Below are positions 17,891-22,909 of a DNA stretch of 64,000 bases, one piece after another. The stretch lies in assembly GCA_963768055.1 (NCBI GenBank), contig CAVYGN010000002.1:1-64000 (forward strand), given 5' to 3'. Both the position numbers and the translations under genes were made by a program. The notes beneath the pieces were generated by a model, which was not told where the DNA came from, did not search any database, and saw nothing but the letters and a program-made list of their open reading frames with translations. Position 1 is the stretch's first letter. Each line of letters opens with the position of its first letter. Origin of the DNA: an uncultured Spirochaetota bacterium (GTDB lineage Bacteria > Spirochaetota > Brevinematia > Brevinematales > JAOACQ01).

Positions 17891-18290
17891 GCCAGTTGCC
17901 AGTAAATCACCTATTTCATTATAATCTACTGGCACCTGACTGGCAAAAAATCGTTTTATTGGTTAGATTGGCTGGATTGGCTGAAATTTTGAAAAAGCGG
18001 CTTTTTCACCAAAATGAGCCAAACCAACCAAAAGAAATTTTTACAAAAATATTGATATGTTATTAACAGGAATAGAGATATGGAGATTAAGGAATTTCAG
18101 GGAAAAATCCATCTGCGAAATCTGCGGATCGTAAATCCTTATCCTGTATATAATTCGGAGGAGGAGGGATTCAGAAAACCCTAACCCTTCTGCTAATTCT
18201 TTATTCCACAATCAGATAGAAATTCATTATTTTACGATTTAACCAAAAATCCGTAATCAAACCGTAATCAAATCATAATCGCATAATTAT
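17891..18290. repeat. att-like junction 3 (type-A arm, tRNA 3' copy at 18156, type-B CGTAATCA arm)
   Basis: 17-bp exact match CGGAGGAGGAGGGATTC; CGTAATCA at 18252 and 18263, CATAATC at 18274. Confidence 0.88.
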
Positions 18291-18378
18291 CTTATTACAG
18301 GTATTGAAAATATACAACCATTATCATGATTTTAAGTATTTGAAATGATTATTTTGTAAAAATATTTTAAAAACCCCC

Positions 18379-18409
18379 TTGACTTGGAGTCCACTCCAGG
18401 TTGTATAAT
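18379..18409 (+). promoter_or_regulatory. MerR-type promoter/operator
   Basis: TTGACT-19 bp-TATAAT with the dyad TGGAGT-CC-ACTCCA in the spacer. Confidence 0.9.
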
Positions 18410-18444
18410 GTTTATATTCAAAAAATAGAAGTCGGAGGAAAACC

Positions 18445-18837
18445 ATGATGATTGCAGAGGTGAGTAAAAAATTCGATCTTTCGCAGGATACCCTTCGTTA
18501 TTATGAACGAATCGGACTGATCCCTTTTGTAAAAAGAAAAAGCGGAATAAGGGAGTATACAGAAGAAGACTGCAGGTGGATCGAATTTATCAAATGTATG
18601 AGAAATGCCGGCCTTCCGATTGAAGTTTTGATCGAATATGTGACGCTGTTCGAACAGGGGGATGAAACCATCCTCGCCCGGAAAAAACTTTTAATTGAGC
18701 AAAGAAGGATCTTAATGGATAAAGTGGAAGAAATGAAGAAAACAATAGAACGATTGGATTACAAAATAGAAAGATATGAAAAGACGGTAATGGTAAAAGA
18801 AAAAGAATTAATCAAACTGGAAGATTCTATTTATTGA
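18445..18837 (+). CDS. MerR-family regulator (AdhR-like)
   Basis: [14 protein letters not shown] and [12 protein letters not shown] with the conserved Cys. Confidence 0.93.
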
Positions 18838-18854
18838 TAATAAGGAGGCGGATT

Positions 18855-19835
18855 ATGCAAAAACGTAAATTGGGAAAAAGCGGATTGGAGGTATCGGCTA
18901 TCGGCCTGGGATGTATGGGTATGAGCCATGGCTACGGCCCGGCTTCGGATAAGAAAGAGATGATTGCTCTGATCCATTCGGCCGTGGAACGTGGTGTAAC
19001 ATTCTTTGATACAGCTGAAATGTATGGCCCATACATAAATGAAGAGCTTGTAGGTGAAGCGCTTGAGCCGTTCCGCAATAAAGTTGTGATAGCTACTAAG
19101 TTCGGTTTTGACATAAAAGGATATCCTGATCTGAACAGCCGGCCGGAACATATCAAACAGGTTGCCGAAGCTTCACTGAAGCGCCTAAGGGTCGATGCGA
19201 TAGACCTTTTCTACCAGCACCGGGTTGATCTGGAAGTGCCTATTGAAGATGTGGCTGGTGCTGTGAAAGACCTGATTCATGAAGGAAAAGTGAAACATTT
19301 CGGAATGTCTGAAGCAAGCGCAAAAACTATCCGCCGTGCTCATACTATTCAACCGGTTACTGCTGTTCAGAGCGAATACTCGCTGTGGTGGAGAGAGCCT
19401 GAAACCGAAGTGTTGCCAACGCTTGAGGAACTGGGGATCGGATTTGTCCCTTTCAGTCCTCTAGGTAAAGGCTTTCTTACAGGAAAAATCGATAAAAACA
19501 CTGCTTTTGATAAAACAGACTTCCGCAATACCGTTCCCCGTTTCACACCGGAAAATAGGGAAGCTAATCAGGCTCTGGTCGGTTTGCTGGAAAAAATTGC
19601 AGCACAAAAAAATGCAACTCCGGCACAAATTGCTCTGGCCTGGCTGTTAGCCCAAAAACCCTGGATTGTGCCTATTCCCGGTACCAGGAAACTGGAACGC
19701 CTGGATGAAAACATAGGAGCTGCAGATTTGAAATTAACCCCCGATGATCTCAGTGAAATACAAAAAGCAATATCGGAAATCAAGATATCGGGTGAAAGAT
19801 ATTCAGGAAGCGGCGCAAAACTTGTCGGCCGTTGA
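18855..19835 (+). CDS. Aldo/keto reductase
   Basis: GLGCMGM, DTAEMYG, IATKFG and IPGT motifs. Confidence 0.95.
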
Positions 19836-19853
19836 TGTTTTAAGGAGAGTTAT

Positions 19854-20705: not shown

Positions 20706-20727
20706 CAAAGTAACAGGAGGTAAATCC

Positions 20728-21561
20728 ATGGCTATCAATGAAACAGCGAATAAAAACCATGAGGCGCTTTTTCCGAATCACAAATCAACATTAAAAGCGA
20801 CCGATCCGGAACTGATAGAGGTATTCGATAATTTTGCTTTTGATGAAGTGCTGGATTATGGCAACATGGATGCAAGAGCAAGGTTAATGATTATTCTGGG
20901 ATCAATGATCGCAAGCCAGGCATTAGGCGAATATAAAGTAATGCTTGGCGGTGCGCTGAATATGGGTGTAACGCCGGTTGAGGTTAAAGAAATAGTATAT
21001 CAAGCTGTGCCTTATGCCGGAATGGCAAAAGTATTTGATTTTATCCAGGCCACAAATGAAATACTGGAAAGCAGGGGGTTAAAGCTTCCGCTGGAAGGAC
21101 AATCGACAACAACACCTGAAACTCGGCTTGAAAAAGGATTGGAAGTGCAAAAATCCATTTTTGGGGAAATGATTGATAAGATGTACAAGGAATCGCCGGC
21201 TGATCAGATTCATATCCAGAAATATTTGTCAGCGAATTGTTTTGGTGATTATTATACAAGAAAGGGACTGGATATTAAAACAAGAGAACTTTTGACGTTT
21301 TCAATGATCTTATCCCTGGGAGGATGCGAGCCTCAGTTAAAAGGGCATATACAAGGCAATATGAATGTCGGAAATGATAAAGGAGTATTGCTTACTGCAA
21401 TTACCCAATTACTGCCATTTGTGGGATATCCGAGAGCACTCAACGCAATAAGATGTTTAAATGAAGTTTTTGTGCATCTTTCTATCGAGGTAAATCCCGA
21501 AAAGGGTCAGGCTACATGGCTTGACCCGGTATCTGACCAGGATTACGATAAATTGAAATAA
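20728..21561 (+). CDS. Carboxymuconolactone decarboxylase (double CMD) family protein with a cupin-like tail
   Basis: Two CMD repeats (FAFDEV; CFGDYYTRKGLD..RELLT; GYPRALNA). Confidence 0.88.
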   Translation: MAINETANKNHEALFPNHKSTLKATDPELIEVFDNFAFDEVLDYGNMDARARLMIILGSMIASQALGEYKVMLGGALNMGVTPVEVKEIVYQAVPYAGMAKVFDFIQATNEILESRGLKLPLEGQSTTTPETRLEKGLEVQKSIFGEMIDKMYKESPADQIHIQKYLSANCFGDYYTRKGLDIKTRELLTFSMILSLGGCEPQLKGHIQGNMNVGNDKGVLLTAITQLLPFVGYPRALNAIRCLNEVFVHLSIEVNPEKGQATWLDPVSDQDYDKLK

Positions 21562-21573
21562 GGAAGTATTTCT

Positions 21574-22167
21574 ATGGCTATAAACGACACGGAAAGAAAA
21601 AACGTGATAATTCTAGGTGCTGGCGGTCAAATTGCAAGTCATGCGATTGAAATGTTGGTAAAATTGGATAATATTAATCTGACCCTTTTTTTGCGAAATA
21701 AAAGCAGATTAAAGAAAAACAATATTTCCAAATGCCGTATCATCGAAGGCGACGTTCTTGATATCAATCAGCTCAAGGAGGCTATTAACGGACAGGATAT
21801 CGTATATGCAAATCTTTCAGGCGATTTGGAGGCGATGGCAAAAAACATCGTGAAAGCTATGGAAGATAAAGGAGTCAAAAAACTCATCTTCATAAGTTCT
21901 ATAGGTATTTATGATGTTCCTTTGCGACCAGTTTTAAAGCCTTACCGGAATGCTACTGATGTAATAGAATCATCTGATCTTGATTACACCATCCTGAGGC
22001 CGACCTGGTTTACAGGTGCTGATGAAGTGGATTATGAAATTACAGAAAAAGGCGAGCCGGAAAAAGGTTCAGAGATCTCTCAAAAAAGCCTGGCGACATT
22101 TATAGTTAAAATTATCGAATCTCCTGAAAATTATAAACGTAAAAACCTTGGCATAAGCAAACCATAG
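21574..22167 (+). CDS. NAD(P)-binding short-chain oxidoreductase
   Basis: ILGAGGQIA and LDYTILRPTW motifs. Confidence 0.88.
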   Translation: MAINDTERKNVIILGAGGQIASHAIEMLVKLDNINLTLFLRNKSRLKKNNISKCRIIEGDVLDINQLKEAINGQDIVYANLSGDLEAMAKNIVKAMEDKGVKKLIFISSIGIYDVPLRPVLKPYRNATDVIESSDLDYTILRPTWFTGADEVDYEITEKGEPEKGSEISQKSLATFIVKIIESPENYKRKNLGISKP

Positions 22168-22190
22168 ACTACTATATACGGAGGATACTT

Positions 22191-22727
22191 ATGAGCAGGA
22201 AAATTTTAGTGCTTTCAGCGAGTCCGAGAAAAGGAGGAAACTCAGATTTGCTATGTGATCAATTTATGATGGGAACAAAAGATGGCGGACATGAAGCTGA
22301 AAAGATATTTTTAAAGGATAAAAATATAAATTACTGCACAGGTTGTGGCAACTGTTTCAACGGCAAGAGTTGTTCCCAGAAAGATGATATGGGCAGTATA
22401 CTGGATAAAATGATTTCAGCCGATGCAATTGTGATGGCAACTCCTGTATATTTTTACACTATGAACGCTCAGATGAAAACTTTAATAGACAGAACCTGTT
22501 CCCGTTATACTGAAATTTCGAATAAGGATTTTTATTTTATTGTAACTGCCGCTGACAACAGCAAGCATGCTATGGAAAGGGCACTTGAAGGATTCAGAGC
22601 ATTTACCTCCTGCCTGAGCGGGGCACAGGAAAAGGGAATCGTTTATGGAACCGGCGCATGGAACATTGGGGAGATAAAAGGAAAGCTTGCGATGAAAGAA
22701 GCATATGAAATGGGGAAGCAGGTTTAA
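22191..22727 (+). CDS. Iron-sulfur flavoprotein / flavodoxin family
   Basis: SPRKGGNS, CTGCGNC...C and TPVYF motifs. Confidence 0.9.
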   Translation: MSRKILVLSASPRKGGNSDLLCDQFMMGTKDGGHEAEKIFLKDKNINYCTGCGNCFNGKSCSQKDDMGSILDKMISADAIVMATPVYFYTMNAQMKTLIDRTCSRYTEISNKDFYFIVTAADNSKHAMERALEGFRAFTSCLSGAQEKGIVYGTGAWNIGEIKGKLAMKEAYEMGKQV

Positions 22728-22742
22728 TTTAGATATAAGAAT

Positions 22743-22909
22743 CGAAATCAAATCGTAATCAGTTGATACTTGAAATACTTAATTGTTTTATATTAAAGGA
22801 GTTAGATTAGAATATAATCCGGAGGAGGAGGGATACGAATGCAGCGTTATTCCATACCCTGTATGGAATAACAAAACTTCGAAAAATTTTTACTGGCACC
22901 TGACTGGCA
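22743..22909. repeat. att-like junction 4 (type-B arm, tRNA 3' copy at 22820, hairpin, type-A arm)
   Basis: CGAAATCA and CGTAATCA at 22743 and 22754; 19/20 match to the tRNA end; TTATTCCATAC-CCT-GTATGGAATAA; TACTGGCACCTGACTGGCA at 22891. Confidence 0.88.

Follow-up and report, generated by a model that had tools for sequence, protein, structure and literature searches.

The 64,000-nucleotide stretch analyzed here (the window) forms the first 64 kb of contig C2 in the two-contig, 3.69-Mb assembly (G000) of an uncultured Spirochaetota bacterium of the order Brevinematales, and carries an array of small cassettes that lack an integrase gene, lined up beside tRNA-Ser(TGA). One of them, a MerR-oxidoreductase cassette, differs from its neighbors in the short repeats at its ends. 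Sequence comparison supports the view that the two junctions bounding it, at 18154 and 22818, are chimeric attachment (att) sites. The first joins an A-type right end through a shared core to a B-type left end, and the second joins a B-type right end through the core to an A-type left end, where A denotes ends with ACTGGCA repeats and B denotes ends with CGTAATCA-type repeats. Judging from these sequences, the chimeric junctions probably arose by tandem accretion, with the B repeats serving as arm-type sites for an integrase whose specificity is not that of the ACTGGCA ends.

ARAGORN finds a single tRNA gene in the window, tRNA-Ser(TGA) on the minus strand (29818-29904). Its final 16 nt plus one base make up a 17-nt block, TTCGGAGGAGGAGGGAT, which recurs to the left of the tRNA. 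The 15-mer CGGAGGAGGAGGGAT within this core is exact at 14395, 18156, 22820 and 29819 and has two mismatches at 10291; five matches compare with 0.13 expected, and five were reached in none of 100 shuffles. Over all 17 nt, the copies at 14393 and 18154 agree in 17/17 positions, the copy at 22818 in 16/17, and the copy at 10289 is degenerate (15/17). Together the five copies split the region from 10.3 to 29.8 kb into cassettes of 3.7-7 kb, each bounded by direct repeats of the tRNA-derived core, as in tandemly accreted cis-mobilizable elements (CIMEs). The cargo consists of defense or stress operons and differs from unit to unit (Pfam on the 17 open reading frames, ORFs, of the window). Because it is unrelated between cassettes, the array reflects stacking rather than duplication. 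Apart from cargo the units appear empty: the tyrosine recombinase family PF00589 has 14 matches in the genome and none in the window, no integrase remnant was seen in any of the four window cassettes (Pfam on ORFs and PF00589 search), and conjugation genes are absent from the Pfam results for the 17 ORFs. This lack of integration and transfer genes is again what defines a CIME.

Upon comparing the cassette ends, we found 22 ACTGGCA matches in the window, against 3.63 expected, clustered at the ends of cassettes. A right ends are long and hold four ACTGGCA copies, two of them inverted and two direct, at a distance of about 210-270 nt from the core; A left ends have two direct copies 57 nt from the core. 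No copy lies between 17946 and 22891, in line with a preliminary description of this DNA, made from the sequence alone, that had noted the lack of ACTGGCA arms in the MerR cassette. Both ends of this cassette instead carry the 11-bp-spaced repeats which the same description had pointed out, namely CGTAATCA at 18252 and 18263 and a variant, CATAATCG, at 18274 on the left, and a variant, CGAAATCA, at 22743 followed by CGTAATCA at 22754 on the right. All five repeats share one orientation. The pattern RTAATC-N5-RTAATC has two matches in the window versus 0.10 expected (20-fold), both within 18253-18280.

Because the neighboring cassettes are A-type and the MerR cassette is B-type, both junctions that bound it appear to be chimeric att sites, and pairwise comparisons show that the similarity changes partner at the core. 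In ungapped comparisons of 60 nt on each side of the core, the junction at 14393 (J2) and that at 18154 (J3) agree in 39/60 positions to its left and 20/60 to its right. The mirror image is seen when the junction at 10289 (J1) is compared with that at 22818 (J4), which share 21/60 positions left of the core and 59/60 right of it. J4 in turn resembles a B junction at the far end of the contig on its left (49/60) and not on its right (18/60). BLAST places the same switch at the core, matching 14359-14409 to 18120-18170 (96%) and 22820-22907 to 10291-10378 (94%). The preliminary description, which had called the junction at 18156 A on its left and B on its right and the one at 22820 its mirror, and both of them recombinant hybrids, is thus borne out.

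The B ends recur as a module elsewhere in the genome. Taken alone, the 8-mer CGTAATCA shows no enrichment (101 copies counting both strands, versus roughly 140 by a rough composition estimate). What is exclusive is the 11-bp arrangement: YRTAATCR triplets at this spacing occur in just three places in 3.69 Mb, each a B left end adjoining a core copy. By BLAST of the ends and inspection, B end modules adjoin four further core copies. Left ends of about 145 nt, 82-84% identical to that of the window, adjoin the cores at C1:15272 and C1:1793761 (C1 being the other contig), and right ends of about 90 nt, 83-85% identical, adjoin those at C2:1874028 and C2:1870507, near the far end of C2. In the alignments, orientation and distance to the core are constant across the B modules. 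The repeats thus lie on both arms of the core at a fixed distance, here and in the other B copies, which is the geometry of arm-type sites. On the opposite side of these other cores we found A-type ends or ends of a third type (C or C'). One B cassette, which encodes OmpA and FtsX-permease proteins, is present twice, with 98.3% identity over 5203 bp that begins at the core, and its left neighbors differ between the two copies. Among 401 sampled Spirochaetota genomes, the exact B triple repeat occurs in G000 alone, besides two AT-rich look-alikes.

The B repeats belong to a wider family. A scan that presupposed no motif, for 7-mers in three copies spaced 11 bp apart (at most one mismatch between all pairs, low-complexity sequence removed), returned 10 loci in 3.69 Mb. 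Eight of them are of the GTA/ATA-xx-C type and two are unrelated, and six of the eight adjoin a tRNA-derived core or sit between a tRNA and an integrase gene. When eight left-end modules (two B, three C, two C' and one other) were aligned with MAFFT, their three repeats fell in register about 80 nt from the core, and the module types differed mainly in the middle dinucleotide of GTAxxC, reading GTAATC, GTACAC, GTACCC or GTAACC/GTACCC. The module from the relative G020 has a backbone 66-69% identical to the B left ends, yet carries GTACAC in all three repeats. Such a concerted change in three repeats on a conserved backbone is expected for the sites of a sequence-specific protein that coevolves with its element.

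Similar triplets accompany integrase genes. Starting from the integrase ORF that adjoins tRNA-Ser(GCT), we collected homologues (the Int_C family) from G000, G020 and G024, and found that seven of the nine genes or fragments have two to three GTA-type 11-bp repeats between the tRNA 3' end or core copy and the start codon. These comprise three of five in G000, after tRNA-Ala, tRNA-Tyr and tRNA-Ser(GCT); all three in G020, after tRNA-Tyr, tRNA-Ser(CGA) and tRNA-Ser(GGA); and the one in G024, where an N-terminal fragment leads into C-type repeats, after which come a core and an A left end. GATAC-type triplets are found at either end of the 52-kb element at tRNA-Ser(GCT). An integrase cognate to A or B was not found in G000, its relatives, metagenome contigs or viral contigs, nor was an autonomous relative that combines A or B arms with an integrase, as a CIME would be expected to have; related GTA-type arms do occur beside Int_C-family integrases.

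Searches with the ends themselves gave little. The B 27-mer has no match in public genome contigs, and the core plus B left-end repeats has none in metagenome contigs. Matches to a B 19-mer (two loci in genome contigs and two in viral contigs) all lack a core, and we read them as chance; a degenerate B 18-mer hit six loci in viral contigs, all within unrelated coding sequence. Several recombinases close to cassette ends were considered and set aside. At other sites with B or C' ends, insertion sequence (IS) elements, a small serine resolvase (some 5 kb away from A modules) and tandem tyrosine recombinases (22-29 kb from another junction, J9) could not be tied to the ends. A trio of recombinases in G021, 5 kb from A junctions, was assumed to be a separate element. 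Int510, a 510-amino-acid recombinase with two near-identical genes beside tRNA-Ser(GGA) and tRNA-Ser(CGA), has no A, B or C repeats between gene and tRNA.

The A ends are more widely distributed, occurring in G000, in G021-G024 and on seven metagenome contigs. The metagenome scan for A left-end junctions gave 13 loci on 12 contigs, of which seven look real (taken as L054, L056, L057, L059, L062/L063, L064 and L066) and five are GA-rich or chance matches. Pfam detects no integrase among the ORFs called on L054, L056, L057, L059 and L063, and an 18-mer of the A arms has no match in viral contigs. In G000, A-type junctions also lie 43-44 kb from tRNA-Ser(GGA). A ends adjoin both TGA-type cores and GGA-type cores, which derive from another tRNA-Ser. 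Between their ACTGGCA arms and the core, A right ends (for example 17960-18040) contain a conserved inverted repeat, GGTTAGATTGG.../...CCAAACCAACCAA, which is also found in G021, G024 and the metagenome copies. The core-less junction at 11541-11700 appears to be a core deletion that joined a GH43 unit to an ankyrin/glycosyltransferase unit, and the same fused A right/left form precedes the MerR operon of G023 (L036:9579-9713).

We propose that site-specific recombination at the tRNA-Ser(TGA) 3' end stacks these integrase-less cassettes, each of which would retain both attP-like halves, a right and a left end around the 17-nt core. Recombination between the attP core of an incoming element and a core of the array would then produce junctions that join the arms of successive elements. 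The 11-bp CGTAATCA repeats would be putative arm-type sites, recognized by the N-terminal domain of a tyrosine integrase that targets tRNA genes. The matching enzyme would be a member of the Int_C family, whose genes have element-specific GTAxxC triplets close by, and is absent from the present assembly. The ACTGGCA ends, which differ in motif and geometry, would be served by a second recombinase, and both enzymes would act on the cassettes in trans. Two claims of the preliminary description bear on this proposal. That at least two integrase specificities deliver cassettes to this tRNA agrees with the concerted repeats, the integrase-linked triplets and the distinct ACTGGCA architecture, and is held back by the missing cognate integrase for A and B; we therefore keep it as a likely interpretation. 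Of the claim of independent, sequential integration rather than duplication, stacking is supported by the unrelated cargo, whereas the array does not reveal in which order the cassettes arrived.

Several observations weigh against this explanation. No integrase of G000 has CGTAATCA or ACTGGCA repeats alongside it, none of the nine Int_C-family genes has CGTAATCA, and inspection by eye found no such integrase in 11 other genomes of the family among the 152 PF00589 matches listed (there are 48 further ones). Two of the nine Int_C-family genes are without triplets, both of them in G000 and neither adjoining a tRNA. The Int_C gene adjoining tRNA-Ser(GCT) (C2:1630501-1631600) is frameshifted near C2:1631350, and this split may reflect a pseudogene or a sequencing error. 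B double repeats, allowing up to two mismatches, are confined to G000, with eight matches at five ends, and the 11 other genomes of the family have none. Left and right ends do not always agree in type, as at least one cassette combines a C' left end with a B right end. Nor do end types follow the cargo, since the MerR operon has an A left end in both G022 and G023. Finally, the duplicated B cassette sits at the ends of contigs in this two-contig assembly, where strain mixing or an assembly error is possible.

Some of these points would be accommodated by a single recombinase that works on the shared core, the end repeats being either binding sites for accessory proteins (bending proteins, or an excisionase or directionality factor) or relics without activity. 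We consider this unlikely, yet it fares best among the alternatives. It would account for mixed-end cassettes and for the failure to find a cognate integrase for either A or B, and it is helped by the similar 3' end of all four tRNA-Ser genes and by the presence of A ends at cores of two types. Harder to reconcile with it are the element-specific triplets directly before integrase start codons and at both ends of the tRNA-Ser(GCT) element. The concerted repeat change on a conserved backbone likewise fits a sequence-specific binder that coevolves with the element, although a directionality factor could also be the binder of both the triplets and the concerted repeats.

A further alternative, to which we give somewhat less credence, regards the cassettes as fossils, that is former full islands from which the integrase was deleted, leaving a fixed array whose repeats have no present function. 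A decay route of this kind to CIMEs is described in the relevant portion of PMC5704250, and decay is visible in the core-less junctions and degenerate cores here and in G023, as well as in the integrase N-terminal fragment beside C-type repeats in G024. The state of the array argues otherwise: three of the four element-borne cores in the window are 17/17 or 16/17, the end modules are 82-96% alike across cassettes with unrelated cargo, one B cassette exists in two copies whose breakpoint falls at the core, and the four window cassettes hold no integrase remnant. Moreover, this alternative addresses the origin and activity of the cassettes and not the identity of the repeats, and is compatible with most of the accretion model. 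Three sequencing runs from one study, available as contigs, cover 12000-31000 at low and patchy depth and are uninformative on mobility. No excision or circle joint of the MerR cassette was seen in these sparse contigs, and the joints that they do contain fit paralogous junctions elsewhere in the genome.

The remaining alternative, in which the repeats are transcription factor sites, can be judged from the sister genomes. In G022, the MerR operon and its promoter are 87% identical to the window from 18345 on, but follow a core and an ACTGGCA-type left end. In G023 both are kept behind a fused A right/left end, and the right end is short, with no clear B repeats and a degenerate core. Homology to both loci (L035 and L036) is limited to the segment from 18345, just upstream of the promoter, to 22723, the last stop codon. 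MerR promoters are marked by a dyad within a 19-20-bp spacer, retained along with the regulator, and here this dyad sits at 18385-18398, apart from the B repeats. The left-end repeats do lie about 100 nt upstream of the MerR promoter, but with a dyad of its own in that promoter, an operon and promoter that persist without the repeats in two relatives, repeats also downstream of the last gene (22743-22761) and a B left end preceding the OmpA/FtsX cassette, which has no MerR gene, it is hardly credible that CGTAATCA repeats are operators for MerR or another cassette transcription factor, a possibility that the preliminary description had named as fatal to its own reading.

Taken further, the accretion model leads to a bolder idea that we offer tentatively and hold to be doubtful as it stands. 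This Brevinematales family might run an integron-like gene exchange anchored on serine tRNA genes, in which a three-repeat address assigns cassettes to orthogonal integrases acting in trans. The addresses would be the GTAATC, GTACAC, GTACCC and GATACC modules and, separately, ACTGGCA, carried by integrase-less cassettes. If so, cargo would pass from one mobilization group to another when a module changed its address but kept its backbone, and such switching would account for the differing ends of the MerR operon in sister species.

The proposed sites resemble those of lambda-type (heterobivalent) tyrosine integrases, whose att sites combine core-type sites with arm-type sites on both arms. Shared features are a short core flanked on both sides by element-specific direct repeats of 8-11 bp at about one helical turn and, in the autonomous relatives found here, an integrase gene adjoining one arm. 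The cassettes differ in consisting of sites only, in being known from sequence, and in an arm motif that changes in concert on a conserved module. Integron arrays offer a second comparison. They hold recombinase-less cassettes that are promoter-poor or single-operon and are served in trans, with attC hairpins as sites and with IntI and attI alongside. The present array shares the recombinase-less cassettes, which would likewise be served in trans, but its junctions consist of a tRNA-derived core with two-sided arms rather than an attC hairpin, no integrase lies beside the array, and cassettes have their own promoters, the MerR promoter being an example.

The closest known counterparts are CIMEs, which keep attL and attR and have lost the integrase (as defined in the portion of PMC5704250 concerned). 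That portion also describes tandem accretion with a chimeric internal att site, for ICESt1/ICESt3 of Streptococcus thermophilus and a composite island at tRNA-Lys of S. agalactiae, and tandems whose distantly related integrases share a target (PMC5704250). The window cassettes are like CIMEs as described there in having attL and attR without an integrase, in stacking at a tRNA end and in internal junctions made of two elements. They depart from that description in that at least four integrase-less cassettes stand in a row with no cognate integrase in the assembly, in their small size (3.7-7 kb) and defense or stress operons with no conjugation genes seen in the window, and in end-module families that reappear with unrelated cargo and beside several tRNA-Ser genes. 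In the tycheposons of Prochlorococcus, according to the pertinent part of the preprint, successive integrations at one tRNA push older elements outwards and leave scattered partial tRNAs (bioRxiv 10.1101/2020.12.28.424599). The present array resembles them in its scattered tRNA pieces and, as proposed, in its successive integrations; defense and niche cargo is common to both, and tRNA-Ser(TGA) is among the tRNA labels in a figure legend of that preprint. By the same part of the preprint, tycheposons are defined by their own integrase, and many have a replication module; the window cassettes lack an integrase, and the recurrent AEP-helicase gene is annotated here only as a TOTE conflict-system protein.

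The building of islands by accretion at tRNA genes is thus already known, and the present array is a variant of it. What we regard as new is the meeting of two arm families, or three with the C-type ends, at one tRNA-Ser core, the entire rows of cassettes without an integrase, and the series of arm modules with concerted repeat switching. A full-text literature search pairing Brevinematales with integrase gave no paper. If the B repeats are arm sites as proposed, this single locus would show elements of differing arm specificity sharing one tRNA target and leaving chimeric junctions behind. The natural, near-isogenic module series, in which one dinucleotide changes three times over, makes the evolution of tyrosine-integrase arm specificity directly testable, and the sorting of integrase-less cassettes among integrases by repeat address becomes testable as well. 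As the cargo consists of defense systems and stress operons, the array is also a record of how a little-studied lineage acquires such genes.

Table 1. Coordinates of the junctions, end modules, cargo and target tRNA of the array in the window.
Feature	Position	Strand	Evidence or details
J1, most distal core copy, degenerate (15/17), followed by A-type left end	10289-10305	+	10291-10378 94% identical to 22820-22907
GH43 / ankyrin / glycosyltransferase, cargo of most distal cassette			Pfam
Decayed core-less junction	11541-11700	+	Inverted repeat of an A right end joined directly to the arms of an A left end
J2, core copy (17/17), junction A to A	14393-14409	+	Core match and junction inspection
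Fic, cargo left of MerR cassette	14715-15368	-	Pfam
AEP-TOTE primase / SF2 helicase protein, 840 amino acids, same cassette as Fic	15352-17874	-	Pfam
A-type right end left of J3	17880-18153	+	TGCCAGT at 17890, 17897; ACTGGCA at 17928, 17939; core about 210 nt further on
J3, core copy (17/17), junction A to B, apparently chimeric	18154-18170	+	Contig of sequencing run X2 spans 18067-18318 with zero differences
MerR-oxidoreductase cassette	18171-22817		No ACTGGCA; B-type repeats at both ends
B-type left end	18171-18330	+	Three 11-bp repeats at 18252-18281, the first 82 nt past the core
MerR-type promoter	18379-18409	+	TTGACT, 19-bp spacer, TATAAT; dyad TGGAGTCCACTCCA at 18385-18398
Cargo operon: MerR, two aldo-keto reductases, CMD-family protein, NAD(P)-binding protein, FMN reductase	18445-22727	+	Pfam
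B-type right end	22728-22817	+	Pair of 11-bp repeats at 22743-22761; about 56 nt separate the last one from the core
J4, core copy (16/17), junction B to A, apparently chimeric	22818-22834	+	Core match and identity switch
A-type left end after J4	22835-22960	+	ACTGGCA at 22892 and 22903
Two TIR-domain proteins and TPR-S / nucleotide cyclase protein, cassette nearest the tRNA	23244-29335		Pfam
A-type right end adjoining the tRNA	29500-29816	+	Repeat comparison, BLAST
tRNA-Ser(TGA), attB; its 3' end is the core at 29817-29833	29817-29904	-	ARAGORN

Some of the cargo recurs. The AEP-TOTE gene is found in further A-type cassettes, in a metagenome contig together with Fic (L063:3364-5793), in G024 (L047:6318-8807) and, truncated, in G021 (L045:9197-10123), and may be a popular defense cargo or a replication gene of A-type elements. 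A 0.85-kb HigB/HigA cassette lies between two cores on contig C83 of G022 (L035:1250-2125) and is also seen on L057. Its left end is of the ACTGACA type and its short right end bears AATCATAA-like repeats, so that it may be another cassette with mixed ends. In the cassette nearest the tRNA, the 942-amino-acid TIR-domain protein (ORF 24665-27493) contains about 13 tandem repeats of 96 nt (32 amino acids) at 26066-27474.

Directly beyond the most distal core lies an IS21-type pair (IstA-like and IstB; 6964-9270, minus strand), and other IS21 copies break up cassettes at C2:1870900-1873230 and C2:1169700-1172030. Cassettes with TGA-type cores are present at three contig ends, along with paralogous OmpA/CitMHS segments; the segments at contig ends are window positions 1-6900, C1:1-15300, C1:1793400-1800866 and C2:1870000-1888111. 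The tRNA-Ser(TGA) array probably extends past position 1 of the window, and the breaks in the assembly seem to fall within repeated cassettes. Each of the other three tRNA-Ser genes in G000 likewise has an island with distal copies of its own 3' end, at C2:1129585-1173651, C1:560355-638856 and C2:1630317-1695956.

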